Below are positions 4,645-22,346 of a DNA stretch of 22,346 nucleotides, piece after piece. The notes below the pieces were generated by a model. It searched no databases. It saw only the letters and a list, made by a program, of their open reading frames with translations, and was not told where the DNA came from. Each line of letters begins with the position of its first letter. Positions within the stretch are counted from its first letter, which is position 1. Source of the stretch: a virus (Duplodnaviria > Heunggongvirae > Uroviricota > Caudoviricetes); IMG/VR virus record IMGVR_UViG_3300045988_116769. One strand, 5' to 3'. A program made the position numbers and the translations under genes.

Positions 4645-4924
4645 TCAGTAACCTCGTGATGGTTTTCTCGCGCTGTGCTTCACGCTTCGCGGCGTTCTCC
4701 AGTTCCTGACGCAGTGCCACCTGCGCCAGCTCGTTTTTGTCTGCCCTGGTGAGGGCAACATGAAGCTGATTTTTCAGCATGGTGATGGTCGTCTGCTGTT
4801 CACTGGCGACGTTGTTCACCCTGTCCAGCGAGGCGCGCAGGCTGGCGTTTTCATGCTTCGCCAGAAACAGCCCCACCACCGCCAGCGATAACAACACAAC
4901 CATCACAATCATCAGCTTTGACAT
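4499..4924 (-). CDS. lysB: LysB, Rz-like inner-membrane spanin
   Basis: 141-aa ORF with N-terminal transmembrane segment (MSKLMIVMVVLLSLAVVGLFLA) and coiled-coil-like remainder; same length as P2 LysB. Confidence 0.7.
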   Translation of the reverse strand: MSKLMIVMVVLLSLAVVGLFLAKHENASLRASLDRVNNVASEQQTTITMLKNQLHVALTRADKNELAQVALRQELENAAKREAQREKTITRLLNENEDFRRWYGADLPDAVRRLHQRPACADASDCPQLLPESESLPDAGQ

Positions 4925-5337
4925 GGTTGCCGCTCCTCAAAACGCTGACGGCAGGCCGTACGTATCAGCCGGAAAAACAGCGATGCCACGAGATAAATCA
5001 GTGCGGTAAAAATCCACCCGGCAGCGACCAGCGAGATAAACGTCGCCACCATCACCACCAGAGCCGCCGCCCGTCTGCGCCACGGCACCGGCTGCAAAAA
5101 CAGCGACGTGACAATCTTCACGGCCAGCGATTCCGGCGGCAGCTCCCGCCCGTAGCGTTCCAGCACATACTCCGTGGCATACACGCCGACACCACCGGCA
5201 ACCACACAGATAACCGTCGCCAGAATCGCCCAGGCAGCGACAAAACTGACGGCCACGCTCTGCGGGTAAATCAGGGACAGTGCCAGCATCAGCGCCAGCG
5301 ACACGTTCAGCATCAGTGAAAGGGATAATTTCTTCAT
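4912..5337 (-). CDS. lysA: LysA, membrane protein of the lysis cassette (lysis timing)
   Basis: 141-aa ORF with several hydrophobic segments; same length and position as P2 LysA, between K and lysB. Confidence 0.65.
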   Translation of the reverse strand: MKKLSLSLMLNVSLALMLALSLIYPQSVAVSFVAAWAILATVICVVAGGVGVYATEYVLERYGRELPPESLAVKIVTSLFLQPVPWRRRAAALVVMVATFISLVAAGWIFTALIYLVASLFFRLIRTACRQRFEERQPCQS

Positions 5338-5351
5338 GGTGTTTACTCCGT

Positions 5352-5849
5352 TTAAGCCGGTACGCCGCCAGCGGTACGCCAGACGGTGACCAGTTTTTCC
5401 AGTGAATGCTCACGCTGACCGTAACCGGCACCCGGCAGGGACGCCCAGATATTGCGACAGCGTGAAATGGCGCGCTCAATGCGTCCCGCCCGGATGTCAT
5501 CCAGTGCACCGCATTCGCGGATCAACTGAATGGCGAGCCTGTCCTGTGACAACGGACTGAAATCCGGCAGGGCAAGCTGTTTGCGGTAATGCGGCCAGAA
5601 CAGGTAAAGCTGCTGATAGCGACCGGAGGCCGTGGATTTTTCACCGCGACGGTTAAACACCTTCGCTGGTCGGCCATGCGCGAACGGGTGGTCGCTGTAG
5701 TCGGTGAAAATTTCCGGCTTCCCGTCCAGTCCGGTGACTATCACGTCATAGCCCCGGTTTTTCGTCAGCGTATGATTCGCCGTCCCTTCGGACACGGCCA
5801 GCATGTCGAGAAAGGCGGCGATATTCTGATGCGTGTTAATTACCGGCAT
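5352..5849 (-). CDS. K: Endolysin K (phage lysozyme)
   Basis: 165-aa ORF starting MPVINTHQNIAAFLDMLAVSEGTANH, close to P2 gpK as I recall it. Confidence 0.9.
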   Translation of the reverse strand: MPVINTHQNIAAFLDMLAVSEGTANHTLTKNRGYDVIVTGLDGKPEIFTDYSDHPFAHGRPAKVFNRRGEKSTASGRYQQLYLFWPHYRKQLALPDFSPLSQDRLAIQLIRECGALDDIRAGRIERAISRCRNIWASLPGAGYGQREHSLEKLVTVWRTAGGVPA

Positions 5850-6130
5850 TACGGTTTCCCCCTGCCCTTAAAACGGCGCTGAATGGCAATCTCAATCACC
5901 TGATAACCGGCGATACCCAGCATGGAGCCGATACCGCACACCGCAGGCAGTGACAGGTCAGGAAACTGCACCAGAACAACACCGGCAACCATCGAGACAA
6001 AACCACCGAGCAACATGCGCCCGATAAACAGACGCGGGGTGATGGGTTCACCACCGGCAAGCACCTTGCCGACAACAATCAGCACCCCAATCATGAAAAG
6101 CGACAGGACGCTTTTTTCTTCTGCTGTCAT
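5849..6130 (-). CDS. Y: Holin Y
   Basis: 93-aa ORF with hydrophobic transmembrane segments and a charged C-terminal tail (RRFKGRGKP); same length as P2 gpY; start overlaps the K stop. Confidence 0.8.
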   Translation of the reverse strand: MTAEEKSVLSLFMIGVLIVVGKVLAGGEPITPRLFIGRMLLGGFVSMVAGVVLVQFPDLSLPAVCGIGSMLGIAGYQVIEIAIQRRFKGRGKP

Positions 6131-6133
6131 GCG

Positions 6134-6337
6134 TTACTCCCACAGATTGACAGTTTCAGCTACGGGCGCGGTCTGAACGTCGGGCAGTTCGACGGCGGTG
6201 CCGTGTGGCAGCATCGCGCCCAGTTCAGCCAGTCCCGGATTTGCGGCGAGCACGGTCTCAACCACGCCCTCAGTGCGCCCGTAATACCGGACACAAATGG
6301 CGTCGAGCGTGTCGCCCTGTAGCGCAAAGGTCTTCAT
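6134..6337 (-). CDS. X: Tail protein X (LysM-like domain)
   Basis: Internal start MKTFALQGDTLDAICVRYYG chosen, giving 67 aa as in P2 gpX; its ATG (6337-6335) overlaps the L stop by 1 nt. The track ORF 6134-6406 has a 23-codon upstream extension. Confidence 0.7.
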   Translation of the reverse strand: MKTFALQGDTLDAICVRYYGRTEGVVETVLAANPGLAELGAMLPHGTAVELPDVQTAPVAETVNLWE

Positions 6338-6846
6338 CAGATTTGACTCACGATGCAGCGCGGCTTGTCCTGGATACGCGCCACCGCCCAGCGCATATCC
6401 CGCCACAGCTCATCAATGGTGCTGTCAATGCTGTCGGCCTTCTTGTCGCCTTTCGCACTGGCATCCACGCCGCGGTAACGCTCATAAAGCGACGCGGTCG
6501 CCATCGCACACACGGCGCGCTCGTAGTAAAAAACTTTGATGCTTTCACCGTCGATGTCGTCCGCCGGAACGTCCGCCAGACGCGTAAAACCGGCGGCAAT
6601 TTTCTGTTCGCGGTACTCGTACAGCTCCGCATTCGTCTCCGCCATGCCTGACTTGATGGCCTCACGCAGACGGGCGGGGGCGACGGTCTGCTCAAGGCGC
6701 ATACGTTCCCGGACGCGCTTCGGGTCGATATCGGGAAAAAAGAACGTGTTTTTAATCACCGGCTCGTCGCCTGCCGGTTGCGGGATGACCACCGTACCCT
6801 CACCGGACACGGGAGCCTCCTTTCGCGGAATAATCAGCGTCATCAT
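6337..6846 (-). CDS. L: Head completion / stabilisation protein L
   Basis: Start MMTLIIPRKEAPVSGEG at 6846 gives 169 aa as in P2 gpL; the track ORF (189 aa) has a 20-codon upstream extension. Confidence 0.8.
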   Translation of the reverse strand: MMTLIIPRKEAPVSGEGTVVIPQPAGDEPVIKNTFFFPDIDPKRVRERMRLEQTVAPARLREAIKSGMAETNAELYEYREQKIAAGFTRLADVPADDIDGESIKVFYYERAVCAMATASLYERYRGVDASAKGDKKADSIDSTIDELWRDMRWAVARIQDKPRCIVSQI

Positions 6847-6945
6847 GACTACCTCTGAAAAGTCGGGCGGTGGACGCCGGTACAGCGTCAGGTGATTCAC
6901 CCTCACAGACCGGCGTGCCGCCCTGGCGCGGGGCGCATTCGGTTG

Positions 6946-7689
6946 TTAACTGGCTTTCTTTTTCGGGCGTCCACGTTTTGCCGGTGTCACGCTCCGGGTC
7001 TTACGCGGGGTACGGGTGGCCGCTTTGGGCTGCGGCTCCGGCTTCGGTTTCAGCTCCCGCTCCAGTCGTTCAATCTCTTTTTTGACGCCTGCCTGACAGT
7101 CGAGCTGTGTCGCACGTTGCAGGTGAGCCAGCGCACCGGCGGCATCACCACCGTCACGCAGAAACAGACCGGTGATTTTGTGCAGCTTTGCGCGCACTTC
7201 ATCAGGCATGTCAGCCGTGGCGGTAAGTTCAAGTGTGTCCGTCAGCAGGCGGGGATCCACAGACTCACCGGCAGCGTGAGCGCGCATGGCCGCAAGCGCC
7301 ACCTCCTCGGTGAACATGTACGGCGGGGTGCGGCGGTGTTTACCCGGCATGGTCAGACCGTACTTCAGGGCATAACGGGCAATCTCCAGCGCACCGGCAA
7401 TATCGCCGGTATCCAGACGCCACAGCATGACCGTCATCAGAATGTCATCCTGTGCACCTTTGCCCTGCTCCAGCACGCCGTTCACCCACGGCAACCAGAA
7501 CGGCAGCAGTTCGCGTTTTTTCGCGGCCTTAAGCTCTTTTGAATAAATCGCTTTCAGTGTGCGCTGATCTGCGGCGAGCTTAACCAGCATCTGCTCATAG
7601 ACAGTTGCATGTCGCAGCGGGGCGGCTTCCCGCTGCGCGGTCATCGCTGCCGAGACCCGCATCATGTGGCGCTGTGCGGGACTCGTCAT
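6946..7689 (-). CDS. M: Terminase subunit M (small / endonuclease subunit)
   Basis: 247-aa ORF, same length as P2 gpM; basic Lys/Arg/Pro-rich C-terminal tail; sits between N and L. Confidence 0.85.
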   Translation of the reverse strand: MTSPAQRHMMRVSAAMTAQREAAPLRHATVYEQMLVKLAADQRTLKAIYSKELKAAKKRELLPFWLPWVNGVLEQGKGAQDDILMTVMLWRLDTGDIAGALEIARYALKYGLTMPGKHRRTPPYMFTEEVALAAMRAHAAGESVDPRLLTDTLELTATADMPDEVRAKLHKITGLFLRDGGDAAGALAHLQRATQLDCQAGVKKEIERLERELKPKPEPQPKAATRTPRKTRSVTPAKRGRPKKKAS

Positions 7690-7692
7690 CGG

Positions 7693-8766
7693 TTACGCTC
7701 CCGGCTCTGCGGTCGCCTTAGCCGGTGTGGAGAAATCACCGACCTTAATTTTTTCCACCAGACAACCGGCGGCGTAGTCTTCCACCACGTAATCAATGTT
7801 CATTGACTCGTAGTTCTCCACGCGGTCGAGTTTCGGGTTTTCCACAATCACGCGGCGATGGCTGTCATCCATGTAGTAGATGGACAGGTTTTCCAGCTTC
7901 GTGATGAGCATCGCATCCGCCGGGAAGTACGGGACGCGTACCGCCGGCAGGTTACCGATGCGTTTCTGGCTGATGATGACGTCAGCGGCCAGCATTTCGC
8001 TGTTGTCCTGCTCCTTGTTGACGATGGGGAAATATTTGTCCGCCAGCAGCTGACGCCCCACAATCACCACAAGGTCAGGGTCTTCCTGATACCACGGCTC
8101 AATCAGGTTGTTGGTCGCATCCATCACCAGTGCATCGAGGCTGGCATAATCACCGCCCTTACCCACGCGGATGACCTCAGAGGTGGTGTGCCCTTCCTCG
8201 TCAGTGACCTTGCTCATCACGCGCGCCGGTGCTTCATTGCGGTATTTCTGCAGCCAGCCGACCGCCACATCCTGCAGCATCGGATTGCTGCTGCGGTCAG
8301 AGGTTTCGGCACGCTTCACGCCGTTAAAACCGGCCATGATGAAATCAAGGGACTGGCGTTTGATAATGGCGTTACGGATACGGAGCTGGAAATCCTGATA
8401 ACGCGCCCACAGGTCCAGCGTTTTGTAGCGGATATAAAAATCGAAGTTAATCTGGTCGCATTCGTACTTGTTAGACGCCAGCTTCGAGAAGTCCTTCGGC
8501 TGACGCTCGGTGCCACCGGCGGTGTCGGTGGTGCTGGCGATGGAGCCGGTGACACCGATGCCAATTTTTTCCCCTTTCATTTCGCTGACCGGCACAATGT
8601 TGATGCGGGTCAGAAAGTCAGAGGACTCCTGCATGGTGTTCATCAGGGTCTGGGTGACCGACGGTTCAACGGTGAATTTTTTCGACACATCACCGGCGTC
8701 GATGCCGTTCAGTTCGGCAACACGGGACAGGTAAGCATTAAATTTAAAGCGGGTTTCCTGGCGCAT
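7693..8766 (-). CDS. N: Major capsid protein N
   Basis: 357-aa ORF, same length as P2 gpN; starts MRQETRFKFNAYLSRVAELNG; sits between O and M. Confidence 0.9.
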   Translation of the reverse strand: MRQETRFKFNAYLSRVAELNGIDAGDVSKKFTVEPSVTQTLMNTMQESSDFLTRINIVPVSEMKGEKIGIGVTGSIASTTDTAGGTERQPKDFSKLASNKYECDQINFDFYIRYKTLDLWARYQDFQLRIRNAIIKRQSLDFIMAGFNGVKRAETSDRSSNPMLQDVAVGWLQKYRNEAPARVMSKVTDEEGHTTSEVIRVGKGGDYASLDALVMDATNNLIEPWYQEDPDLVVIVGRQLLADKYFPIVNKEQDNSEMLAADVIISQKRIGNLPAVRVPYFPADAMLITKLENLSIYYMDDSHRRVIVENPKLDRVENYESMNIDYVVEDYAAGCLVEKIKVGDFSTPAKATAEPGA

Positions 8767-8824
8767 AGTTTTTCCTGAAATTAAGGGTTAATCGTGAAGG
8801 TTTTCCCGGACTGACTGACGCCGG

Positions 8825-9679
8825 TCAGCAGTTCGTCAGCAGGGCATCACCGCCACCGCCGGTGGCTTTACTGCGGCGCTGCTGGGTCAGACTTTCGGTG
8901 CTGTCGAGACTGTTTTTCAGGCGGGTGAATGCCTGGCTGGTTTCATCCGCCCTGTCAGTCACATCCTGCTTAAGTGCGGAAAAGGCGGTTTCCATCTCAG
9001 CGAGGCGCTGCTCAGTGGCGCTCAGTTTTTCCTGCACATGTTCAGCAACAGCGGTCACCGCTTCATGCACATCATTCAGACGGGCATCATCGCTGGCCTG
9101 TTTGCGGCCAAAAATGGATTTCACCTTTTCGGTCAGGGCGGTGAACACGGTTTCAGGCAGGTCTTCAAATTCCAGCTCAACAGGCGTTGCCACTGAAATC
9201 AGGTTTTCAGGGCTTAATTTGAAGCGGTTCAGGGGGTTGTGTTTTGCCGTGCGGCAGAATTCCAGGTATTCCGTGCCGAGGCTTGCCGGGTCATCGGTGA
9301 CGGCCAGCCCCACCAGATAACATTTGCCGGTATTGGCAAAGTTCGGCTGAATTTCCATTGAGGTGTAGACCTTCTGCGCGGCCTTGTTCATCGCGATAAG
9401 GTCATCGGTCGGGGTGATTTTCGCAAACAGCGCCCATTTGCCTTTCAGCGCCGAATCGTCGTCAATCTTTTCGGCCTTCAGTTCGGCCACATCGCCATAA
9501 CGCTTAAAAATACCGTCAGGCAGGATGCCACGCAGATGTTCCAGGTTAATGCGGCAACCATAGACTCGCGGGTCAAAGGTTTCGGCCATTTCCTGAATAT
9601 CCTGCGCACTGATGACACGCCCGTCACAGGTGTCACCCTCAACGCCGATACGAAAGAATTTTGAGACTTTTTTTGCCAT
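8825..9679 (-). CDS. O: Capsid scaffolding protein O
   Basis: Internal start MAKKVSKFFRIGVEGDTCDGRV at 9679 gives 284 aa as in P2 gpO; the track ORF has a 22-codon upstream extension. Confidence 0.85.
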   Translation of the reverse strand: MAKKVSKFFRIGVEGDTCDGRVISAQDIQEMAETFDPRVYGCRINLEHLRGILPDGIFKRYGDVAELKAEKIDDDSALKGKWALFAKITPTDDLIAMNKAAQKVYTSMEIQPNFANTGKCYLVGLAVTDDPASLGTEYLEFCRTAKHNPLNRFKLSPENLISVATPVELEFEDLPETVFTALTEKVKSIFGRKQASDDARLNDVHEAVTAVAEHVQEKLSATEQRLAEMETAFSALKQDVTDRADETSQAFTRLKNSLDSTESLTQQRRSKATGGGGDALLTNC

Positions 9680-9852
9680 TGTCAGGAGTCCTGAATAGTG
9701 ATTAGAGGAGTCACATGTCGGCATCAGTTTCCCGACGATGCGCATCCTCCGCCATCAGTCCCGGATGGCTTATCACTGACACAACAGCACCTTAGCGAAT
9801 CGCGGGGCGCGACTCAGTAGCCTTGCCGTGTATTCATCACGGCGAGGTATTC
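9680..9852. promoter_or_regulatory. Divergent late-promoter region between O (minus) and P (plus)
   Basis: In P2 this intergenic region carries the divergent Ogr-activated late promoters. A near-consensus activator dyad TGG-N12-ACA lies at 9766-9783, about 70 nt upstream of the P start. Positional call. Confidence 0.4.
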
Positions 9853-11625
9853 ATGACCATCACCACAGACACCACTCTTTTACACGACCCGCGTCGTCAG
9901 GCGGCGCTGCTGTACTGGCAGGGATTTTCCGTGCCGCAGATTGCCGCCATGTTGCAGATGAAACGCCCGACGGTGCAGAGCTGGAAACAGCGCGACGGCT
10001 GGGACAGCGTTGCCCCCATCAGCCGTGTCGAAATGAGTCTGGAAGCGCGGCTGACCCAGCTCATCATCAAACCGCAGAAAACCGGCGGTGACTTCAAGGA
10101 AATTGACCTGCTCGGACGCCAGATTGAACGACTGGCACGGGTCAACCGTTACAGTGAGACCGGCAACGAGGCAGACCTTAATCCGAACGTCGCTAACCGC
10201 AACAAAGGCGGGCGTCGCAAACCGAAAAAGAATTTTTTCAGTGACGAGGCCATCGAAAAGCTGGAGCAGATTTTCTTTGAGCAGTCTTTCGAATATCAGT
10301 TGCACTGGTATCGCGCCGGGCTTGAGCACCGCATCCGCGATATCCTGAAATCCCGCCAGATTGGCGCGACGTTTTATTTTTCCCGCGAGGCGCTGCTGCG
10401 CGCCCTGAAAACCGGTCATAACCAGATTTTTCTGTCGGCCAGTAAAACGCAGGCGTATGTGTTCCGCGAATACATCATCGCCTTTGCCCGGCTGGTTGAC
10501 GTTGACCTGACCGGTGACCCGATTGTCCTGGGCAATAACGGCGCAAAACTGATTTTTCTCGGCACCAACTCCAACACCGCGCAGAGCCATAACGGCGACC
10601 TGTACGTCGACGAGATTTTCTGGATCCCGAATTTTCAGGTACTGCGTAAGGTGGCATCAGGTATGGCCTCACAGAGTCACCTGCGTTCGACCTATTTCTC
10701 CACCCCGTCCACGCTGGCGCACGACGCCTACCCGTTCTGGTCGGGTGAACTGTTCAACCGGGGACGCGCCAGCGCCGCCGAACGCGTGGAAATCGACGTC
10801 AGTCATAACGCCCTTGCCGGTGGGCTTCTCTGTGCAGACGGCCAGTGGCGGCAGATTGTCACCATTGAGGACGCGCTGAAAGGCGGCTGCACGCTGTTCG
10901 ACATTGAGCAGCTCAAACGCGAAAACAGCGCCGACGATTTTAAAAACCTGTTCATGTGTGAATTTGTTGACGACAAGGCGTCAGTGTTCCCGTTCGAGGA
11001 GCTGCAACGCTGCATGGTCGACACGCTGGAAGAATGGGAAGACTACGCGCCGTTTGCCGCAAATCCGTTCGGCTCCCGCCCGGTATGGATTGGTTACGAC
11101 CCGTCACACCGTGGCGACAGTGCCGGATGCGTGGTACTGGCACCGCCGGTGGTGGCCGGTGGCAAATTCAGAATACTTGAGCGTCACCAGTGGAAAGGCA
11201 TGGACTTTGCCACCCAGGCTGAATCCATCCGCAAACTCACCGAAAAATACAACGTCGAATACATCGGAATTGATGCCACCGGCCTCGGTGTCGGCGTGTT
11301 TCAGCTCGTTCGCTCGTTCTATCCCGCCGCGCGCGATATCCGCTACACGCCGGAAATGAAAACCGCAATGGTGCTCAAGGCAAAAGACGTTATTCGCCGT
11401 GGCTGTCTGGAATATGACGTCAGCGCCACCGACATCACCAGCTCGTTTATGGCTATCCGCAAGACCATGACCAGCAGCGGACGCAGCGCCACCTATGAGG
11501 CCAGCCGCAGCGAGGAAGCCAGCCATGCCGACCTCGCCTGGGCGACCATGCACGCCCTGTTAAATGAGCCACTCACCGCCGGTATCAGCACCCCGCTGAC
11601 ATCCACCATTCTGGAGTTTTACTGA
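9853..11625 (+). CDS. P: Terminase ATPase (large) subunit P
   Basis: Start MTITTDTTLLHDPRRQAALLYWQGF at 9853 with GAGGT Shine-Dalgarno 5 nt upstream gives 590 aa as in P2 gpP; the track ORF starts 10 codons earlier. Confidence 0.9.
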   Translation: MTITTDTTLLHDPRRQAALLYWQGFSVPQIAAMLQMKRPTVQSWKQRDGWDSVAPISRVEMSLEARLTQLIIKPQKTGGDFKEIDLLGRQIERLARVNRYSETGNEADLNPNVANRNKGGRRKPKKNFFSDEAIEKLEQIFFEQSFEYQLHWYRAGLEHRIRDILKSRQIGATFYFSREALLRALKTGHNQIFLSASKTQAYVFREYIIAFARLVDVDLTGDPIVLGNNGAKLIFLGTNSNTAQSHNGDLYVDEIFWIPNFQVLRKVASGMASQSHLRSTYFSTPSTLAHDAYPFWSGELFNRGRASAAERVEIDVSHNALAGGLLCADGQWRQIVTIEDALKGGCTLFDIEQLKRENSADDFKNLFMCEFVDDKASVFPFEELQRCMVDTLEEWEDYAPFAANPFGSRPVWIGYDPSHRGDSAGCVVLAPPVVAGGKFRILERHQWKGMDFATQAESIRKLTEKYNVEYIGIDATGLGVGVFQLVRSFYPAARDIRYTPEMKTAMVLKAKDVIRRGCLEYDVSATDITSSFMAIRKTMTSSGRSATYEASRSEEASHADLAWATMHALLNEPLTAGISTPLTSTILEFY

Positions 11626-12659
11626 TGAGCAAGAAAAAAGGGAAAACACCGCAACCTGCGGCAAAAAAAATGACCCCCAGCGCACCGAAAATGGAGGCAT
11701 TCACCTTTGGTGAGCCGGTGCCGGTACTCGACCGCCGTGACATTCTGGATTACGTCGAGTGCATCAGTAACGGCAGATGGTATGAGCCACCGGTCAGCTT
11801 TACCGGTCTGGCAAAAAGCCTGCGTGCTGCCGTGCATCACAGCTCACCGATTTACGTTAAACGCAATATTCTGGCCTCGACATTTATCCCGCATCCGTGG
11901 CTTTCCCAGCAGGATTTCAGCCGCTTTGTGCTGGATTTTCTGGTTTTCGGTAATGCGTTTCTGGAAAAGCGTTACAGCACCACCGGTAAGGTCATCAGAC
12001 TGGAAACCTCACCGGCAAAATATACCCGCCGTGGCGTGGAGGAGGATGTTTACTGGTGGGTGCCGTCCTTCAACGAGCCGACAGCCTTCACGCCCGGCTC
12101 CGTGTTTCACCTGCTGGAGCCGGATATTAATCAGGAGTTGTACGGCCTGCCGGAATATCTCAGCGCCCTTAATTCTGCCTGGCTGAATGAGTCGGCCACG
12201 CTGTTCCGCCGAAAGTATTACGAAAATGGCGCTCATGCCGGATACATCATGTACGTCACCGATGCCGTGCAGGATCGCAACGATATCGAAATGCTTCGCG
12301 AAAACATGGTTAAGTCGAAAGGCCGCAACAACTTTAAAAATCTGTTTCTCTATGCCCCGCAGGGGAAAGCTGACGGCATTAAAATTATCCCGCTCAGTGA
12401 AGTGGCAACGAAGGACGATTTTTTTAATATCAAAAAAGCCAGCGCCGCTGACCTGCTGGACGCGCACCGCATCCCCTTTCAGTTGATGGGCGGCAAGCCG
12501 GAGAACGTCGGGTCACTGGGAGATATTGAGAAAGTGGCAAAGGTCTTTGTCCGCAATGAGCTTATCCCGCTACAGGACAGGATCCGCGAGATAAACGGCT
12601 GGCTCGGTCAGGAGGTCATCCGCTTTAAAAACTACTCACTGGACACTGACAACGGCTGA
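11625..12659 (+). CDS. Q: Portal (capsid vertex) protein Q
   Basis: 344-aa ORF, same length as P2 gpQ; start overlaps the P stop (ATGA); ends 168 nt before cos as in P2. Confidence 0.9.
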   Translation: MSKKKGKTPQPAAKKMTPSAPKMEAFTFGEPVPVLDRRDILDYVECISNGRWYEPPVSFTGLAKSLRAAVHHSSPIYVKRNILASTFIPHPWLSQQDFSRFVLDFLVFGNAFLEKRYSTTGKVIRLETSPAKYTRRGVEEDVYWWVPSFNEPTAFTPGSVFHLLEPDINQELYGLPEYLSALNSAWLNESATLFRRKYYENGAHAGYIMYVTDAVQDRNDIEMLRENMVKSKGRNNFKNLFLYAPQGKADGIKIIPLSEVATKDDFFNIKKASAADLLDAHRIPFQLMGGKPENVGSLGDIEKVAKVFVRNELIPLQDRIREINGWLGQEVIRFKNYSLDTDNG

Positions 12660-12664
12660 ACATC

Positions 12665-12686
12665 GCCGCCTGCGGGCGGCTTTTTT
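12665..12686 (+). terminator. Rho-independent terminator of the P-Q operon
   Basis: GCCGCC-tgcg-GGCGGC hairpin followed by TTTTTT, 5 nt after the Q stop codon. Confidence 0.75.
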
Positions 12687-12826
12687 ACATCCCGTCATCA
12701 CGCCCTCACACACTCACCACCGCACAAAACAGCCCGCAGGCAAACCAACGCCCAACGGACAGACTAAGCGCCGTCACGACGCGCTGAGACGCTGAAAAAA
12801 TAAAATCAGCACCACCGCCAGCGCGC

Positions 12827-12845
12827 AGTGCTTTCCCCGCCTCGC
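12827..12845. other. cos site (19-nt cohesive end of P2/186)
   Basis: GTGCTTTCCCCGCCTCGCC is the reverse complement of the cohesive end GGCGAGGCGGGGAAAGCAC as I recall it. Adjacent bases (reverse complement of about 12720-12845) also match my recollection of the P2 left-end sequence. Confidence 0.8.
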
Positions 12846-13121
12846 CCGCCCGCTTCATGGGGCGGTTTTAATGCAGTTGCATGAGTACGTTGAATCCTCG
12901 CTAGCTGTGACGTAAAGCAATGAGGACGCATAACTTTGACACATGCAAAACCATGCACCTGATACATGCATAGTTATTACTTTGTAAAAACATAAAAAAA
13001 GGAAATCCCATGAACAAAAATCAAACTATTAATAAAAATTTTTATATCTCTTAGAACAAAAGATTTTGCTTGAACAAAGTAAACTTCTGAGGTAGATCTT
13101 TATCGTTTAGCAAAATAATTC

Positions 13122-13175
13122 ATGTTAAACAGCTTAAATATTTATACAATATCATTGGCAATGATGAGGTTTTAA
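13122..13175 (+). promoter_or_regulatory. Putative promoter/operator and RBS of the cargo gene
   Basis: -10-like TACAAT at 13145-13150; 15-bp palindrome ATCATTG-G-CAATGAT at 13151-13165; GAGGT Shine-Dalgarno at 13166-13170, 5 nt before the ATG. AT-rich context, -35 not clear. Confidence 0.35.
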
Positions 13176-15395
13176 ATGGAACTTAAATTAAAGAATATAA
13201 CCAGCTATAAGAAAGATAGCTTCACGACTCTTAATCTCTCAAAAAAAATTAATATACTTTATGGTCACAACGGTTGTGGAAAATCAACCATATCTAATTA
13301 TTTCTATAATCCAAATAACACGGACTACAAAGAATGCGAATGTCCTTTCATAGATACTTTTCGCCTATTGGTTTATAATACTAAGTTTGTTGAGGATAAT
13401 TTTTATAATGCAAAAGAGCAAAAAGGAGTATTCACTTTAAGTAAGGAAAATGCTGACATTGAAAAAGAATTGTTGGAAAAAGAAGCTATAAGACAAGACC
13501 TACTTACAAAATACAAAGATAAAAAAAACGTTATTGAGCGTTTAATTAAAGATAAAAACAATAAAGAAAATGAATATATTGATTTAATATGGAATAAAGC
13601 AGAACCTTTTAGATCATCTGACTTAAAGAACTTGATGAAAGGTCAGTTAGGAAGCAAGAGATCATTTTATGAGCAAGTTAAAAAAGCCCCTCAAACCACT
13701 GACGTTAACATCGAGTCACTTGCTCAAGAATATAGTATTCTTTTAAAGAACAAAGATAAATTCACTGCATCAATTACACCTTTAGAAAAATATATCATTT
13801 CAGAAAAAGATAAAGAATCTTTATCCACTCCGATTATAGACTCAAGTAATAGCTATTTGTCAGAAACAATTAAACAACTTCAAAACCTTGACTGGGTGAA
13901 AAAAGGGAAGGAATTATATTTAAATGGCACATGTTGCCCATTCTGCCAAGAAGACACTATTAAAGACAAATTTTTAGAAGCAATTGAATCTATCTTTGAT
14001 GATAGCTACTCCAAGAAAGTTGACCAAATACGCATTATCAGATCGTCTTATGAATCCGCTACCATAGATAATTTAAGAAAAATAAAACAAGAGATTTCAT
14101 CTTGTGAATTAATCACCTCAAAAGAAAAAGATATAACATCATCTCATATAGCGTTATTAGAGGAAATAGCAAACAAAAACTTAAAATTGATGTTAGATAA
14201 AATCAATAACCCATCTATATCTATTATTTTGGAATCCAATAGCGACCTTGAAGCAAAGGTAGTTGATAATATAGCAGAGTACAACAATAGAATTAAAGAA
14301 ATAAATATTAAAGTCAAACAATTTAAGGATAGTGAAAAGTCTATACGTTACAAAATATGGGGAGCAATAAGAGAATTATGCAACGCTGAGTTTGAAGCTT
14401 TCTCAAAATATGAGAATGACTATAAAATCATTTATGAACAATATCAACTTGAATTAAATACCATAAAAGAACAAGGAGATAACAATAGCAAAAAGATCAA
14501 AGAGCTACGCGATCAAATATCTAACATTGATGCAACCATAGATTCTATAAATCAACGTCTAAAATTATTAGGAATTTATGGTTTTAGCATAAAAAAACAC
14601 ACTGAGAGCAATGATAAATATATTATATCACGTTCTGAAAACACAACAGATAAAGATGTATACAGATCTCTTAGCGAGGGTGAAAAAACTTTAATTACCT
14701 TTCTCTACTTTCTGGAATGCTGTAAAGGTAAGACAGATAAGAATGATACGGATATGCGAGATGTATTTATCGTTATTGATGATCCAATATCCAGCCTCTC
14801 TCAAAATTATGTGTACGATATTGCTTCAATAATTCACCATGAAATAATCAACAATAACAAAGCAGTAAAGAAAACATTAATACTCACACATAACCTTTAT
14901 TTCTTTCATGAACTTATCAAATTAGCTCCTAGAAGCAAAGAAGATAGAACATTCAAGCGTGATTATTATCTTGGACGAGTAACAAAAAATGAATATAGCA
15001 TAATTACAGAAATAGAGAAAAAGAGCATTCAGAATGAATACCAGTCCCTATGGCAAGTATTAAAAGATGCGAAGGATGGAAGGGTAAATAAAGTCATAAT
15101 ACCTAACATCATGAGAAATATACTGGAATACTACTTCGCATTTGTTCATAGAACGGATGCATTACAGACAGAGTTAAATAAACTTGCTAGCGATGATAAG
15201 AATAATGATTTTAGAGCATTTTATAGATACATTAATAGAGGTTCCCATTCAGATGCAGTTAATATCACAGACATGGGAGATATATCTCCAGAGAAATATA
15301 TGGAGCAACTAAAAACCATTTTTCGTATGACTGGTGATGAAAAACATTATTTGAAAATGATGGACGAAGAGGAAGAGGAAACCGTTACCGCTTAG
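13176..15395 (+). CDS. Cargo gene: 739-aa ABC/SMC-like ATPase of the AAA_13 type with a coiled-coil insert carrying CxxC and a C-terminal domain; candidate RloC/PrrC-like anti-phage protein
   Basis: Walker A GHNGCGKST (13263-13289); C253-C254-P-F-C257 (13932-13946) in a Lys/Glu-rich coiled-coil-like stretch; signature LSEGEK (14670-14687); Walker B VFIVIDD with D-loop PISSLS (14763-14801); H-loop LILTHN; C-terminal R647-x3-E651 and His 658/691. About 30% GC against roughly 55% in flanking phage genes. Convergent with gene A. Confidence 0.75.
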   Translation: MELKLKNITSYKKDSFTTLNLSKKINILYGHNGCGKSTISNYFYNPNNTDYKECECPFIDTFRLLVYNTKFVEDNFYNAKEQKGVFTLSKENADIEKELLEKEAIRQDLLTKYKDKKNVIERLIKDKNNKENEYIDLIWNKAEPFRSSDLKNLMKGQLGSKRSFYEQVKKAPQTTDVNIESLAQEYSILLKNKDKFTASITPLEKYIISEKDKESLSTPIIDSSNSYLSETIKQLQNLDWVKKGKELYLNGTCCPFCQEDTIKDKFLEAIESIFDDSYSKKVDQIRIIRSSYESATIDNLRKIKQEISSCELITSKEKDITSSHIALLEEIANKNLKLMLDKINNPSISIILESNSDLEAKVVDNIAEYNNRIKEINIKVKQFKDSEKSIRYKIWGAIRELCNAEFEAFSKYENDYKIIYEQYQLELNTIKEQGDNNSKKIKELRDQISNIDATIDSINQRLKLLGIYGFSIKKHTESNDKYIISRSENTTDKDVYRSLSEGEKTLITFLYFLECCKGKTDKNDTDMRDVFIVIDDPISSLSQNYVYDIASIIHHEIINNNKAVKKTLILTHNLYFFHELIKLAPRSKEDRTFKRDYYLGRVTKNEYSIITEIEKKSIQNEYQSLWQVLKDAKDGRVNKVIIPNIMRNILEYYFAFVHRTDALQTELNKLASDDKNNDFRAFYRYINRGSHSDAVNITDMGDISPEKYMEQLKTIFRMTGDEKHYLKMMDEEEEETVTA

Positions 15396-15642
15396 GCCGC
15401 ATATCATCGGGTTGGGTAAGAACGACGGTGTTCACACACCGTCTCCCACTTACCGAAACGATAGCGATTGTACTGACGTACTTTCACTAACTTTAACATG
15501 AGATTATCTCCATGCCAGCACTATTGTTGCCAATAGCAGCCTTTACACCCTTTGTATAAAGCTAATACCAAGAGCAATGCAAGGATACCCCAAGCGGTAA
15601 CTGGCGTGGATTCTAGAGCAGCCTAACTAAAAAATCAAAGCA

Positions 15643-17952
15643 TTAATTAAATCCCGGCCACTCATCATTTACCGGATACCTGAAGTTTACCCCCTCATAA
15701 TTTACGGTTGCCCCACGCGCCAGCGCCTCAAGCTCCCATCGCTGAGGCCTGATACCGTTCTGACCAAGGTCAACGCGGATACGGGGGATTTGCATTCGTT
15801 CCGACCGGGTCAGTCTGGCCGAAGGCGCAATTTCATGCGGTTTTAACGGGCTTCCGTTTCTTTGCTGACGATTTGGTGTTCTCAGTTCGTGTTTTAATGC
15901 CCCCCTGAGCGCCCTCACGACATCCGGGTCATTCCATTCGATAACACCGTCATCGACCAGATTAAGCACGGCTGCGGCATGTTCAGAAGGTGTGGGAGCC
16001 GTTAACGAAGTATCACTGCCGGTGAACTTTCCACAGTTATTGACAGGACTCCGAGGCGCGGCGATGCCGCTTTTTAAAGTCAAAGGCTCAACGACCGGAA
16101 CTTTCGGCACAATGCGCCAGTCCGTCGTTCTGGTGATATGAATATGACGCGCGCCGAGATGCGGCGCGTAAATGCCGACCACTCTCCCGACTTCTTCCTC
16201 GTACTCGTTAACGTCATCCGACGGGCTACGGGCGACTCTGACAGTCTGGCAATCACGCGGAACATTTGCCCCACCCTGCGCGCTGATATACAACGCAAAA
16301 TCACCACTGTCTGCGGCGGCACGTGCAGCCTCAACGCGTTCGTCAAACTCATCAGCAATGCTGACGCCGCGAGGCAATTTGCGTAGTTCACGGTAAGCCC
16401 CCATTGTCGGCAGGCCAACCGTTTTAAATTGCGGGATGCGCCACGTTGACGCCCATGCGGTAACAGCCGCAGCAGTATCTTTCAGCGGCCTGCCGGTATC
16501 GTTATCGAGCTGACCATCCAGTGCATAGCCATCGATGTTTTTTGAGATGTATTTCGCGATATACCCCGCAGCACCGCCCCGGTTAAGATGTTTTGCCTGA
16601 AAACGGTTTCGCGCGGCTCCTCTTTCGTCGCCATCCTCTTTGAGCGCATAGCGACGCATGATTTCGATAATCTGGTTACGCTGGCGTGGATTACAAAAAA
16701 GCATCATATGCCAGTGCGGCGTTCCGTCGTGGTGTGGCTCGACGACTCGCAAACCGTAGACCTGTAAATCATTATCCTTGAATGCCGTGCGCATCAGGCT
16801 CCAGATACGGCAGAGATAACGCTGCGCATCCTTTGGATTAAATGCCTCATCGTTCCAGCCGTGATTAAGCTGAACGGTTTTACTTTCGCCTTTTCTGACC
16901 TGACGAGTCGGGTGATACTTTGACGGCGCGGTCAGCGTGATAAACATCCCCACATCACCCTCTGCGGCGGCGTAACGCTCAATACCGGCAATGGTGTTCA
17001 TCAGCTCCATCCGGCGAATTTCAGGATTAGAAATACTGCCCATCACCTTACTGATAAGGTCGATGCGCTCGCCGGTTTCCCTGTTTTCAAGGTCACACGA
17101 TTTAAGAAATTCCAGATTTGCCTGGCGGCGCGCACGCACATCACGAATGGCGTGTTTACTGGCATAAGGAGAACGGTCTTTATTGACCTCCCCGACAGCT
17201 ATCAGTAACGCTTCATGCCAGCGCATACGCTGGCCTTTAAGCTGATGAGTCCACCACTCATCGTTAAACAGACGGGCAATGGCAGAATATGCCTGCCTCG
17301 TGGTCATCTGCCCTTTACGGTATTTTTTCCAGTAGAGAGGGGAAATATTGAAAGCACGTGCAGCGCCAGCAACATGACCATAGAGGTGAGCCTGCGCCTC
17401 ATCCGTAAACAGCGATTCTTTTTCGCCATGCGCATCCACCCAGGCATCGCTGAGTTCCTCATACATCATGAAAAGCTGCGATGAGATACGGGCAGCAAAC
17501 TTTTTCAGCTCCTTGTCATTCATTCCCGGCAGGCGCGCATAGTGGTCACGCTCTGCCAGAAACAGTAACGACGCGTCGGTGTTCATTTCATGGCGCTGAT
17601 TCACACGCTCAATGCGCGGCCATAAACGACGCTGAAAAGTGGATGTGAGGAAATAAAACCCGTGTACCGGGCTTTTATTGCGCCGGATGTAGTCATAGCG
17701 TGAAGTAAACAGCGAGCGCAAAAAGTAAGGCAGGCGGTTAATCGTGGATAAAACACCTTGCACCTGACGCATCTCGTCACGTGTAAGGGGTCTTTCGCGC
17801 CCGACGGCCTCGCGTGGCGCGTTCCATGCATAAGCACCGGTAAACGCCTTACCGGTGCCTGCAGCAAATGCTGAAGGAGGGACAAAACGCCCGGAGGCTT
17901 TAACGGCCATATGAGCCAAAAGCCTCTGAACAACGCCTGCTGAGTTGCTCAA
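15643..17952 (-). CDS. A: Replication initiation protein A (rolling-circle nickase)
   Basis: 769-aa ORF containing MAVKASGRFVPPSAFAAGTGKAFTGAYAWNAPREAVGRERPLTRDEMRQ, matching P2 gpA as I recall it. True start may be the internal Met at 17910 (755 aa). Confidence 0.9.
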   Translation of the reverse strand: MSNSAGVVQRLLAHMAVKASGRFVPPSAFAAGTGKAFTGAYAWNAPREAVGRERPLTRDEMRQVQGVLSTINRLPYFLRSLFTSRYDYIRRNKSPVHGFYFLTSTFQRRLWPRIERVNQRHEMNTDASLLFLAERDHYARLPGMNDKELKKFAARISSQLFMMYEELSDAWVDAHGEKESLFTDEAQAHLYGHVAGAARAFNISPLYWKKYRKGQMTTRQAYSAIARLFNDEWWTHQLKGQRMRWHEALLIAVGEVNKDRSPYASKHAIRDVRARRQANLEFLKSCDLENRETGERIDLISKVMGSISNPEIRRMELMNTIAGIERYAAAEGDVGMFITLTAPSKYHPTRQVRKGESKTVQLNHGWNDEAFNPKDAQRYLCRIWSLMRTAFKDNDLQVYGLRVVEPHHDGTPHWHMMLFCNPRQRNQIIEIMRRYALKEDGDERGAARNRFQAKHLNRGGAAGYIAKYISKNIDGYALDGQLDNDTGRPLKDTAAAVTAWASTWRIPQFKTVGLPTMGAYRELRKLPRGVSIADEFDERVEAARAAADSGDFALYISAQGGANVPRDCQTVRVARSPSDDVNEYEEEVGRVVGIYAPHLGARHIHITRTTDWRIVPKVPVVEPLTLKSGIAAPRSPVNNCGKFTGSDTSLTAPTPSEHAAAVLNLVDDGVIEWNDPDVVRALRGALKHELRTPNRQQRNGSPLKPHEIAPSARLTRSERMQIPRIRVDLGQNGIRPQRWELEALARGATVNYEGVNFRYPVNDEWPGFN

Positions 17953-18175
17953 CCTGCGCGTTTAAATCAGCAAAAGACTTTGCGCTTCCGGTCAGAATAT
18001 CGTGATGCATCAGGCCGGAAACGAGCTGGCTTAATTTCGGATAATAACCAACCACCGCCAGCCATTCCTGACCGGCGTTTTTACCGCTTTCCGCTCTCTT
18101 TTTCTCGTGGAGAATAAACTGAAAGCTGTCACTGGTAACGACATAACGTTCGCCAATTTCAATACGAATACTCAT
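17900..18175 (-). CDS. Hypothetical early-region protein (P2 orf83 position)
   Basis: 91-aa ORF immediately upstream of A in the same orientation. Confidence 0.5.
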   Translation of the reverse strand: MSIRIEIGERYVVTSDSFQFILHEKKRAESGKNAGQEWLAVVGYYPKLSQLVSGLMHHDILTGSAKSFADLNAQVEQLSRRCSEAFGSYGR

Positions 18176-18396
18176 GCCGTTCTCCGGTAATGTTTGTTTT
18201 TTGCTTCAAAGACTGACTGGCAGGAAACACAACGCGTGGCTGACGGATAAGCCGCACGACGGGCAGCAGGTATTGGCGCGTCACACTCTTCGCAAACCAG
18301 CGCAGAAGCTCCGCAATGTTTTACCCTTGCCGCGTTAATCTGACGCTCCAGTAATTCAGCCTGTTGTTCCTGAATAAAATCTACGTTGTCCGGCAT
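18172..18396 (-). CDS. TraR/DksA-family C4 zinc-finger protein (P2 orf82 position)
   Basis: 74-aa ORF with CEEC-x17-CVSC (C-x2-C ... C-x2-C) motif typical of TraR/DksA zinc fingers; 4-nt overlaps with neighbours. Confidence 0.65.
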   Translation of the reverse strand: MPDNVDFIQEQQAELLERQINAARVKHCGASALVCEECDAPIPAARRAAYPSATRCVSCQSVFEAKNKHYRRTA

Positions 18397-18701
18397 TACC
18401 AGTTCCTTTTGTCGTTAAGTTTTTTAAATTCATCAGCGCAATAGCTGGCAATTTCTGTCGTTAATTTCGTCAGTTCATCCACGGAGGAGATTTGCTTGTG
18501 AAATACAGCGCGTTTAACAAGTAAATTGACCACATCAGACAGGAGATTTAATTCGTTCTGATAAATCGCGATAACAGACTCAGTTATTTCGCGTTTTTCT
18601 TTATCAAGACCAAGTTGAATAAGAGATAGATCGCCATTTTTCATAACGGTGATTTTTAAGGCGTTATTCAGTAATACAACTGAACGAGAACAGGACATCA
18701 A
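18396..18701 (-). CDS. Hypothetical early-region protein (P2 orf81 position)
   Basis: 101-aa ORF in the B-to-A operon, translationally coupled to neighbours. Confidence 0.5.
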
Positions 18702-18955
18702 AGCACCTCCCCGCGAGACAATCCGATATTGTGAAATTTTTCCGACTCCTGACTGAGCAGCTCGACTATCTCTACGCGGGATAACTCCGCCTTTGTGATG
18801 TGGCGAATCATGGCGTCAAGATGAGAAGAAAAGCGCGTCGCTGCGTCGGCCTGTGCTTCGGTTCTGGCCTGTTGCAGCAGTAATGCGTATTTACCGCACT
18901 GATTTTCAGAAACTGTATGCATGACTTTCTCCAAGCAAAAAGAAGCCCCGCACAA
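18698..18955 (-). CDS. Hypothetical early-region protein (P2 orf80 position)
   Basis: 85-aa ORF between B and the orf81-position gene, same orientation. Confidence 0.5.
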
Positions 18956-18985
18956 TTAAGTGCGTTAAAAACTCTGGTTAATTAC

Positions 18986-19486
18986 TTAATGCAGATATTG
19001 CTCTGGTTTTACCGACGTCAGAATTGTCGGTGCATACTCAAACAGGCTGAATAATTCACGTAATGCACGGAATAAGGCATCACGCCAGTAACATGATTCT
19101 TCATTAATTCGCCAGTATGGCTGGTTGAATTCTTTTTCAGTCAATCCGGCATGCATAAATAAAGTACGGCGCTGACTGACAGTTAAAAAGCTAATATATG
19201 CATACTCACTTGCACCGACCTGACGGCGTTTTGAGAATGCCCCACGCAGTTCATCAATTGCACAAACCAGCCGTTCACGTTCGACGTCGTTCATTTCTTC
19301 AAAACGCATCGTTGCGTGACGCTGTTTTAACTGCGCATGGAAGCAAACCGTTAGCCGTTCGCGTTCCATCATCTGATTATAATAATCGCATGTCTCCTGC
19401 CAGCGAGGGACGGCCAGATGCTTACCAATTATCCGGCGCATAGCTGCTGGCTGTTTTTCAACGAGATTGAGCGTCATCACTGTCAT
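18986..19486 (-). CDS. B: Replication protein B
   Basis: 166-aa ORF, same length and position as P2 gpB (between cox/orf78 and the small orfs before A). Confidence 0.75.
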   Translation of the reverse strand: MTVMTLNLVEKQPAAMRRIIGKHLAVPRWQETCDYYNQMMERERLTVCFHAQLKQRHATMRFEEMNDVERERLVCAIDELRGAFSKRRQVGASEYAYISFLTVSQRRTLFMHAGLTEKEFNQPYWRINEESCYWRDALFRALRELFSLFEYAPTILTSVKPEQYLH

Positions 19487-19677
19487 TTCCAGACCCTCCG
19501 GCTTTTCAGAAAGGTCAGAGCCTTTTTTAACGGACTCTGTTTTTTGGTGCGGATAATGATTCCCTTACGCCCCTTACCGTGGGTGATGGTGAAGTCAATC
19601 GCCCTGGGGCTTTCGTTACGCAATAACTGAGCAATACAACGAGGCTCATTCATACGGTTCTCCTTAACGTGGTTCAC
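19483..19677 (-). CDS. Hypothetical early protein (P2 orf78 position)
   Basis: 64-aa basic ORF between cox and B, overlapping both ends. Confidence 0.5.
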   Translation of the reverse strand: MNHVKENRMNEPRCIAQLLRNESPRAIDFTITHGKGRKGIIIRTKKQSPLKKALTFLKSRRVWK

Positions 19678-19939
19678 CGAGACCTAACCACATCAACCAG
19701 CCGTCACGAATCTCTTTAGGACGGCTTTCATAAGCCAGTTTTAGTCCGTTATTCCATGCCGGAAGGTATACCCAATATTCACCAGCACGCCCCGATACTG
19801 ACTGAGGGTCAGTAATCTCAATAACTGGTAATTTCCCTTTCTCAATCATGCCCCTTACAGCTCTTGGAGTTTTACCAATGAGTTTTGCAAACTCCTGATA
19901 AGGCACGGCATCAGTCACGCTTACAAGCTGTCTATTCAT
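19664..19939 (-). CDS. cox: Cox (early-operon repressor / excisionase-like directionality factor)
   Basis: 91-aa ORF, same length as P2 Cox; first gene of the minus-strand early operon, divergent from C. Confidence 0.8.
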   Translation of the reverse strand: MNRQLVSVTDAVPYQEFAKLIGKTPRAVRGMIEKGKLPVIEITDPQSVSGRAGEYWVYLPAWNNGLKLAYESRPKEIRDGWLMWLGLGEPR

Positions 19940-20060
19940 CTGCTACGATTCTCCCTTAGTGCTTCTAATGGCTCCTAATGGCTAATTATTGCCTAAAAGG
20001 ATAACTCCAGAAGCGCAACATCTCACACTATCAGCAAGAAATTACGCAATCGGAGTAATT
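19940..20060. promoter_or_regulatory. Immunity switch region: divergent early (toward cox) and repressor (toward C) promoters with candidate operator repeats
   Basis: Intergenic between divergent cox and C. Tandem direct repeat GCTTCTAATG / GCTCCTAATG / GCTAATTA at 19961-19988. Confidence 0.5.
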
Positions 20061-20360
20061 ATGTCAATAGACGTTTCGGAGAAGTTGAAGCTAATCCGTG
20101 AATCTGAAAGGTTAAACCGTAAAGAATTCAGTGAATTAACTGGTGTAGCCTACAGCTCACTTTCGAGCTATGAGAGCCGGTCAAAAAACGCTGGAGTTGA
20201 AGCCATAATGAAGGTCTTACAACATCCCAGATTTACTAAATATACTTTGTGGTTCATGACTGATCAGGTAGCTCCAGAAGCCGGGCAAATTGCGCCCGCT
20301 CTCGCACACTTTGGGCAAAACGAAACAACGTCGCCCCACTCCGGTCAAAAGACTGGTTAA
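20061..20360 (+). CDS. C: Immunity repressor C
   Basis: Start MSIDVSEKLKLIRESERLNRKEFSELTGVAYSSLSSYESR at 20061 gives 99 aa as in P2 C (HTH). C-terminus ...QIAPALAHFGQNETTSPHSGQKTG matches P2 C from memory. The track ORF starts 24 codons upstream. Confidence 0.85.
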   Translation: MSIDVSEKLKLIRESERLNRKEFSELTGVAYSSLSSYESRSKNAGVEAIMKVLQHPRFTKYTLWFMTDQVAPEAGQIAPALAHFGQNETTSPHSGQKTG

Positions 20361-20475
20361 CAATTTATCGCGAATATATTCATCACAAGTGCCTACTATT
20401 GGTGGCTAAATTTCAGCCACCACGAAAAAAGCGATTAGTAGTAGCAAAAAAAAGTACCACTCGGAGGGTTTTCTG

Positions 20476-21489
20476 ATGGCAATCAAAAAACTCGATGATG
20501 GTCGATATGAAGTGGACATCCGCCCTACTGGACGTAACGGAAAACGCATCCGTAGGAAGTTTGATAAGAAAAGCGAAGCTGTCGCTTTCGAAAAATACAC
20601 GTTGTACAACCACCACAATAAAGAATGGCTATCAAAACCAACAGACAAACGACGTCTGTCGGAACTGACACAGATCTGGTGGGATTTAAAGGGTAAACAC
20701 GAAGAGCATGGGAAATCTAATCTTGGAAAAATTGAAATCTTCACAAAAATAACGAATGACCCATGCGCATTTCAAATCACGAAATCCCTTATCAGCCAGT
20801 ACTGCGCCACCCGAAGAAGTCAGGGTATTAAACCTTCGAGTATCAATCGTGATTTAACATGTATTAGCGGCATGTTTACAGCCCTGATTGAAGCGGAGTT
20901 ATTCTTTGGTGAGCACCCTATCAGAGGGACAAAGAGGCTTAAGGAGGAAAAACCAGAAACAGGCTATCTCACACAGGAAGAAATTGCCTTACTGCTTGCA
21001 GCACTTGACGGCGACAACAAAAAGATTGCGATTCTTTGCCTGAGTACAGGAGCACGTTGGGGAGAAGCAGCTCGTTTGAAAGCAGAAAATATCATCCATA
21101 ACCGCGTCACGTTTGTTAAAACGAAAACAAACAAACCACGCACCGTCCCGATCTCAGAGGCTGTTGCCAAAATGATCGCGGATAACAAACGAGGTTTTTT
21201 ATTCCCTGATGCTGATTACCCTCGCTTCAGACGAACAATGAAAGCAATAAAACCGGATTTGCCAACGGGGCAAGCCACACATGCACTAAGGCACAGCTTT
21301 GCCACTCATTTCATGATTAATGGAGGAAGTATTATCACGCTACAACGGATACTAGGTCACACGCGGATTGAGCAAACTATGGTTTACGCTCATTTTGCGC
21401 CAGAGTACCTTCAGGACGCCATTTCTCTTAATCCGCTAAGAGGTGGTACTGAAGCCGAGAGTGTCCACACAGTGTCCACAGTAGAGTAA
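20476..21489 (+). CDS. int: Tyrosine integrase
   Basis: 337-aa ORF starting MAIKKLDDGRYEVDIRPTGRNGKRIRRKFDKKSEAVAFEKY, essentially the P2 Int sequence as I recall it; C-terminal HALRHSF ... GHTRIEQTMVYAHF holds the catalytic His/Arg/Tyr. Confidence 0.95.
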   Translation: MAIKKLDDGRYEVDIRPTGRNGKRIRRKFDKKSEAVAFEKYTLYNHHNKEWLSKPTDKRRLSELTQIWWDLKGKHEEHGKSNLGKIEIFTKITNDPCAFQITKSLISQYCATRRSQGIKPSSINRDLTCISGMFTALIEAELFFGEHPIRGTKRLKEEKPETGYLTQEEIALLLAALDGDNKKIAILCLSTGARWGEAARLKAENIIHNRVTFVKTKTNKPRTVPISEAVAKMIADNKRGFLFPDADYPRFRRTMKAIKPDLPTGQATHALRHSFATHFMINGGSIITLQRILGHTRIEQTMVYAHFAPEYLQDAISLNPLRGGTEAESVHTVSTVE

Positions 21490-21568
21490 CGTTTAAGGGC
21501 TTTCAGTGGTAATTTATGCCACTCAAACCCGCATTGTACCGTTGAAAGCCCCTACTGGTGACACCCTA

Positions 21569-21595
21569 AATCTCCCTTACACGGGCTTATTTTTT
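21569..21595. other. att core (27 bp) at the int-proximal prophage/host junction
   Basis: AATCTCCCTTACACGGGCTTATTTTTT is the reverse complement of the P2 att core AAAAAATAAGCCCGTGTAAGGGAGATT as I recall it; lies 80 nt after the int stop. Confidence 0.75.
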
Positions 21596-21752
21596 ATGCA
21601 TAAGCCGTATCCTGGTCACCGTCTTCCATTGACCACATCGATAGAATCCCCCTTCATAACACGATGCCTTTCACGTAACGGCATCGTGCTCGTACAGATT
21701 CCGGCTACGCACAACCAGAACGCGCATGTTTGACGCTTACCAAAAAATATTC

Positions 21753-22070
21753 TCACTCTCCACATTTGAATGTCAGACGAGCGACGCCATGTAATCCTGC
21801 ACCTTCTGTCTTCAGGTCAACTATCTGCATTTTTTTTCCCTGAGTAACACAGAAATGAGCTGCATCATTTTTTACTATATTTTCTGCACCAGAAATTCTG
21901 CCCCTGGCTAAAGAAGCTTCGGCTTCGGTGTAGTATTGGTTATCGAGTTTACGCTGAATATTACTTTTATATGCAAGGCCAAATTTACCGATACTTGTCT
22001 CATCATTATGCACAGCACAACCAGACATAAGAAAAACACTAATTAATGATATAGCAGCTATCTTTTTCAT
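21753..22070 (-). CDS. Host-side small lipoprotein (hypothetical)
   Basis: Start MKKIAAISLISVFLMSGCAVHNDE: signal peptide plus lipobox LMSGC, 105 aa; the track ORF has a 20-codon upstream extension. AT-rich, outside the att core. Confidence 0.55.
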   Translation of the reverse strand: MKKIAAISLISVFLMSGCAVHNDETSIGKFGLAYKSNIQRKLDNQYYTEAEASLARGRISGAENIVKNDAAHFCVTQGKKMQIVDLKTEGAGLHGVARLTFKCGE

Positions 22071-22296
22071 CTTACCTTCCCCCATTAAATACCAACGACA
22101 CGCTCTGGTGTTTAAATATAATAATGGCATGATTATTATATTTGAATAGGATTATAATAAATGTTCTGTACAACATTTCCTACATAAGTAGGAATTACAG
22201 ACACGGATGCCCTTCCGGGTAACCCCATGGGGGGGTTAGTATATTTTTAATAGTATATTGAAGATGCCACTGTTTAGTTGAATATTAGGTATATGC

Positions 22297-22346
22297 CTGT
22301 CTCTTATACACATCTGACGCTGCCGACGAAGAGGATAGTGTAGATC
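22297..22346. other. Illumina Nextera adapter (Tn5 mosaic end, adapter, 8-nt index, flow-cell primer start); not biological
   Basis: CTGTCTCTTATACACATCT (mosaic end, reverse complement), GACGCTGCCGACGA, AGAGGATA (reverse complement of TATCCTCT, which I recall as index N503/S503), then GTGTAGATC. Confidence 0.9.

Follow-up and report, generated by a model that had tools for sequence, protein, structure and literature searches.

A contig carrying a P2-like Escherichia coli prophage ends in Nextera adapter sequence

Introduction

The closest described counterpart of the contig end studied here is the i5-side read-2 contaminant of Nextera and Nextera XT libraries, in which CTGTCTCTTATACACATCTGACGCTGCCGACGA is followed by an index and the complement of P5. 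CTGTCTCTTATACACATCTGACGCTGCCGACGA is the adapter that is trimmed from read 2 of Nextera XT libraries, and a run of As is what reads show once they are past the end of the library molecule (PMC3906532). The corresponding oligonucleotides have been published as well: in Table 1 of PMC12702366, i5 index 3 is given as TATCCTCT and the primer that carries it as AATGATACGGCGACCACCGAGATCTACAC-TATCCTCT-TCGTCGGCAGCGTCAGATGTGTAT, with TCGTCGGCAGCGTC right after the index. The mosaic end (ME) at the inner side of the construct is an engineered hybrid of the outside and inside ends of Tn5/IS50 and has 15-16 of its 19 bases in common with each of them. We take the natural 19-bp ends to be CTGACTCTTATACACAAGT (outside) and CTGTCTCTTGATCAGATCT (inside).

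The window, i.e., the whole stretch of 22,346 bases analyzed here, ends in a sequence that an initial annotation had read as a Tn5 mosaic end, adapter, an 8-nt index and the start of the flow-cell primer. The same annotation placed the end of genuine sequence at 22296 and warned that the assembly close to this point may be less reliable. In this study, we compare the contig end with the published library oligonucleotides, with E. coli chromosomes and with other public records that carry the same construct.

Results

Prophage Context

The window contains about two thirds of a P2-like (Peduovirus) prophage (positions 1-21595), which lies beside ordinary E. coli chromosome and is integrated between yegQ and yegR, presumably the position that the cryptic P2 remnant ogrK/yegZ occupies in K-12. 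The prophage genes follow the order gpH, I, J, W, V, S, R, lysis genes, L, M, N, O, P, Q, A, B, cox, C and int (coordinates of individual features are collected in Table 1). At the left side, homology to several P2-like phages begins only at ~1091. Since the frame of gene H is open to base 1 and the other end carries adapter, both window ends are assembly breaks; tail-fibre genes, when variable or repeated, are typical places for short-read assemblies to break. No Pfam match was obtained for the 124-aa long version of the yegR ORF or for a 75-aa ORF at 21506-21730.

The slot between Q/cos and A, where we assume P2 to carry old/tin, is occupied by a 739-aa ORF. Pfam AAA_13 covers it from end to end (E 2e-102), PDC-S06, a candidate defence family of PADLOC, matches as well (E 4e-253), and the C-terminal half gives a weaker PrrC-like hit (E 2.5e-14). 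An identical protein is widespread in E. coli assemblies (699 index blocks). The product is probably a prophage-borne anti-phage defence ATPase.

Table 1. Features of the window, with their coordinates and the basis of their assignment.
Feature	Coordinates	Strand	Basis or remark
Tail-fibre gene H, cut by the left window end	1-905	-	frame beginning MTVKYYAILTNQGAARLANATMLGSKLNLTQ... open to base 1
739-aa ORF	13176-15395	+	variable region between portal gene Q/cos and replication gene A
27-bp att core AATCTCCCTTACACGGGCTTATTTTTT	21569-21595		identical sequence in the annotated attP of phage P2 and at the unoccupied yegQ-yegR site of E. coli MS 21-1
Last genuine sequence, E. coli chromosome flank: yegR, then yegR-yegS intergenic region	21596-22296	.	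E. coli genome matches
yegR	21753-22070	-	RefSeq annotation of matching chromosomes
Tn5 mosaic end CTGTCTCTTATACACATCT	22297-22315	+	read-out orientation, insert into adapter; single exact match
GACGCTGCCGACGA, reverse complement of the read-1 (i5-side) Nextera transposase adapter TCGTCGGCAGCGTC	22316-22329	+	matches the published string and Tn5ME-A
8-nt i5 index read as AGAGGATA, reverse complement of TATCCTCT	22330-22337	+	PMC12702366 Table 1
GTGTAGATC, first 9 bases of the reverse-complemented P5 flow-cell sequence (…GATCTACAC)	22338-22346	+	i5 primer identity

Identity and Layout of the Terminal 50 Bases

Read directly, the letters at 22297-22346 are CTGTCTCTTATACACATCT GACGCTGCCGACGA AGAGGATA GTGTAGATC, and base for base they equal the i5 side of an Illumina Nextera library molecule, running from the insert outward. 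The mosaic end named in the initial annotation is exact: the 19-nt sequence has one match in the window, directly after the insert sequence and with 0 mismatches, while only about 0.02 chance matches with up to three mismatches are expected. The adapter that had been proposed to follow it is likewise borne out, as the first 33 bases (22297-22329) are identical to the read-2 trimming string (PMC3906532) and to the reverse complement of the Tn5ME-A oligonucleotide. Moreover, reverse-complementing the published i5 index PCR primer with TATCCTCT (PMC12702366) reproduces 22306-22346 at 41/41 positions, and because of this identity the octamer AGAGGATA, correctly recognized as an index, is read as the complement of i5 index TATCCTCT. 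The same primer identity covers the supposed start of the flow-cell primer: nine bases of the P5 complement GTGTAGATCTCGGTGGTCGCCGTATCATT are present, all of them matching, and the contig stops before the other 20.

When the 42 fixed bases were searched with the 8-nt index slot left free, 42/42 constant positions matched at 22297-22346 as the sole site in the whole window, in agreement with the exact adapter match claimed earlier. In 100 dinucleotide-preserving shuffles the 50-nt pattern never arose, not even at a tolerance of three mismatches, and no other Nextera, TruSeq, P5 or P7 16-mers occur elsewhere in the window on either strand. We take TATCCTCT to be the Illumina kit index N503/S503; a literature search pairing TATCCTCT with the name N503 found nothing. 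Compared with the Nextera i5-side read-2 contaminant, the sequence, the order of its parts, the orientation and the position at a contig end are the same. There is no difference from a Nextera i5-side read-through; the one sample-specific part is the index (AGAGGATA, i5 TATCCTCT), and the contig ends 9 bases into P5.

Junction With the E. coli Chromosome

The last 747 bases of the window were matched in 5,424 of 5,426 complete E. coli genomes and, among the best matches listed, the match covers query positions 1-697, corresponding to window 21600-22296; for this span, 5,385 of the 5,426 genomes are counted as matching. Where the window carries adapter, the references go on with TCTTTTTTGAAATTTA... 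toward yegS. A multiple alignment with E. coli ST2747 and the prophage record ON470606 gives the same picture, with agreement through ...GGTATATGC, after which the references read TCTTTTTTGAAATTTATC and the window reads adapter. Eight of the 12 compared loci reach this region; the alignment of seven stops at 22296 and that of one at 22294. In the closest reference, the true continuation matches 20 of the final 50 window bases and differs at the other 30. A search of 20,395 records from 5,426 complete E. coli genomes gave no match to the exact 50-mer, and the 36-nt junction (GAATATTAGGTATATGC joined to CTGTCTCTTATACACATCT) has no match in viral, genome or metagenome contig collections.

With E. 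coli homology lost exactly at the junction, the placement of the last genuine base at 22296 holds and the genuine contig is 1-22296. In register with locus L002, the yegS start is predicted ~189 nt past 22296; the junction is thus located within the yegR-yegS intergenic region and no real gene is cut. In the reference loci, yegS and a DeoR-family regulator gene lie on this side of yegR, and the expected distance between the yegR and yegS coding regions is about 415 bp.

Reliability and Variation of the Host Flank

The warning about the nearby assembly did not hold up. The 697 bases before the junction align without gaps with E. coli chromosomes, and the finished chromosome of E. coli MS 21-1 reproduces the last 177 of them (22120-22296) at 100% identity. 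An assembly that degrades toward the junction was considered and rejected, as there is no decay in identity approaching 22296.

The closest reference, GCA_964046355.1 (locus L124), shares 99.95% identity over 19,121 bases. The prophage part (3176-21836) is 100% identical to this reference, and all nine substitutions fall in the host flank around yegR (21837-22239), without gaps; none of the nine lies in the last 57 genuine bases. Six of them are alleles common to other E. coli references, while three (21837 T, 22141 T and 22239 G) have no counterpart in the eight references compared; two of the three, 22141 T and 22239 G, belong to the 177 bases that E. coli MS 21-1 matches at 100%. The yegR region is polymorphic, its identity to complete genomes ranging from below 90% to 98.7%. 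An identical prophage next to a differing flank suggests either the same prophage in different hosts or local recombination in a polymorphic region.

The Same Construct in Other Public Records

Scanning IMG/VR for exact copies of this construct, with the index slot free, retrieved at least 120 contigs (loci L003-L122), for which 125 copies are listed. These contigs are unrelated and originate from many different samples, yet none of the 125 listed copies is more than 70 nt away from a locus end, and all of them point outward. Their index slot is filled by 15 different octamers: in 100 of the 125 the index is the reverse complement of one of the eight i5 indices in the table of PMC12702366, and AGAGGATA itself occurs in four. 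After the index, 124 of the 125 read exactly GTGTAGATCTCGGTGGTCGCCGTATCATT up to the contig end, and the longest copies listed contain the rest of P5, followed by poly-A or poly-G. Many of the listed adapter contigs come from few samples (3300009124, 3300045988, 3300040985 and 3300013414) and, among the matches listed, loci L076 and L081 carry adapter at both contig ends.

GenBank phage and plasmid records with the construct belong to unrelated hosts (Bacillus, Paenibacillus, Vibrio, Listeria, Enterococcus, Klebsiella and Acinetobacter), with sites such as MH538296.1 55-104, MK373775.1 149749-149798, LR597643.1/NC_049948.1 50020-50068 and LR595870.1 1297-1329. The plasmid collection yielded eight records only, from Klebsiella and Enterococcus, mostly with the 33-nt constant part; three of them, each of 2.6 kb, begin with the adapter. 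An internal copy of the 33-nt constant part sits beneath the terminase ATPase gene of Peduovirus P22H1 (LR595870.1) and may mark a chimeric join.

The contig end studied here thus resembles the other contaminated records in IMG/VR and GenBank, which share the same construct at or near record ends across unrelated taxa. Whereas some of these records extend through the full P5 to poly-A or poly-G, this contig stops 9 bases into P5. In several GenBank phage records a 'hypothetical protein' is annotated across the adapter, while nothing is annotated there in this window. A sequence that faces outward at the ends of unrelated contigs and whose index is specific to the sample is an artefact of the library and does not belong to the genome.

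Discussion

We interpret the 50 terminal bases as untrimmed Nextera adapter read-through at a contig end, with a probability of about 0.98. The feature is an ordinary technical artefact and not a biological one, and no observation of weight speaks against this reading. The following course of events is proposed. In a Nextera library made by Tn5 tagmentation, one transposase insertion would have taken place at 22296/22297, and the reads would have been longer than the insert of this fragment. Read 2 would then have run rightward from the insert through the mosaic end, the read-1 primer site and the i5 index into the start of P5; the assignment to read 2 and to a short insert follows the working of the library as described in PMC3906532. 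If trimming was absent or incomplete before assembly, the assembler may have extended the contig tip with adapter-bearing reads, giving rise to a synthetic end, and the true path toward yegS would have been lost.

Thin local coverage is a plausible contributor to this loss. The G+C content of the last 350 genuine bases is 34%, compared to 51% for the whole window, and tagmentation libraries under-represent AT-rich DNA. Because of this combination, thin coverage near the junction may explain why the path to yegS is missing. The length of the adapter run was also considered as a trace of the assembler, since 50 nt equals k-1 for a k-mer of 51, but this idea was rejected because the runs in other contigs vary continuously between 50 and 120 nt.

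A natural origin of the terminal sequence would be conceivable if the contig had broken at a repeat, at the end of a Tn5/IS50 copy or another real mobile element upstream of yegS. Indeed, the 19-mer is derived from Tn5 ends and contigs frequently break at insertion sequences. Yet, the 19-mer equals the engineered mosaic end with 0 mismatches, compared to three for the outside end and four for the inside end, and the next 31 bases are the Illumina primer site, index and P5 instead of IS50 sequence. In addition, such an element would be expected to turn up among real genomes, whereas the 50-mer occurs in 0 of the 5,426 complete E. coli genomes and the plasmid collection contributes only the eight records described above. 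We therefore regard a natural element as extremely improbable. Commercial transposomes share the 19-nt mosaic end, so that a contig reading into a laboratory ME-flanked synthetic transposon of the EZ-Tn5 type at this site would begin in the same way; such transposons, however, have a marker or an origin immediately inside the ME, while in this contig a sequencing-primer site, a sample index and P5 come after the ME. As this combination is assembled only by the indexing PCR of library preparation, the adapter structure cannot pre-exist in a genome, and the same arrangement with other indices ends at least 120 unrelated environmental contigs. A synthetic transposon is accordingly given hardly any credence.

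A chance likeness of genuine E. coli intergenic sequence to the adapter can be judged from the shuffled sequences, in which the pattern never appeared, and from the true intergenic sequence, which thousands of genomes document and which departs from the adapter at 30/50 positions; this possibility is practically nil. The 50 bases might also be physically present in the source chromosome, for example as library DNA that integrated when a strain was contaminated in the laboratory, or as part of an ME-flanked synthetic construct. We consider this very unlikely indeed but, if true, it would represent a real engineered insertion upstream of yegS and not an assembly artefact.

The reading as adapter read-through has direct consequences for the use of these data. 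The bases at 22297-22346 must be trimmed ahead of annotation, homology search or submission, since untrimmed adapter creates false links between unrelated contigs and can seed spurious ORFs at contig edges. The - strand of 22239-22346 is open for 36 codons from the contig end, beginning DLHYPLRRQRQMCIRDRH... (DLHYPLRRQRQMCIRDRHIPNIQLNSGIFNILLKIY, then stop), and a gene caller that permits partial edge genes could report this adapter-derived 36-codon peptide. At the same time, the adapter documents how the sample was handled: it was sequenced from a Nextera-type library with i5 index TATCCTCT and its read trimming was presumably incomplete. Consequently, the other contigs of the same assembly need adapter screening as well.
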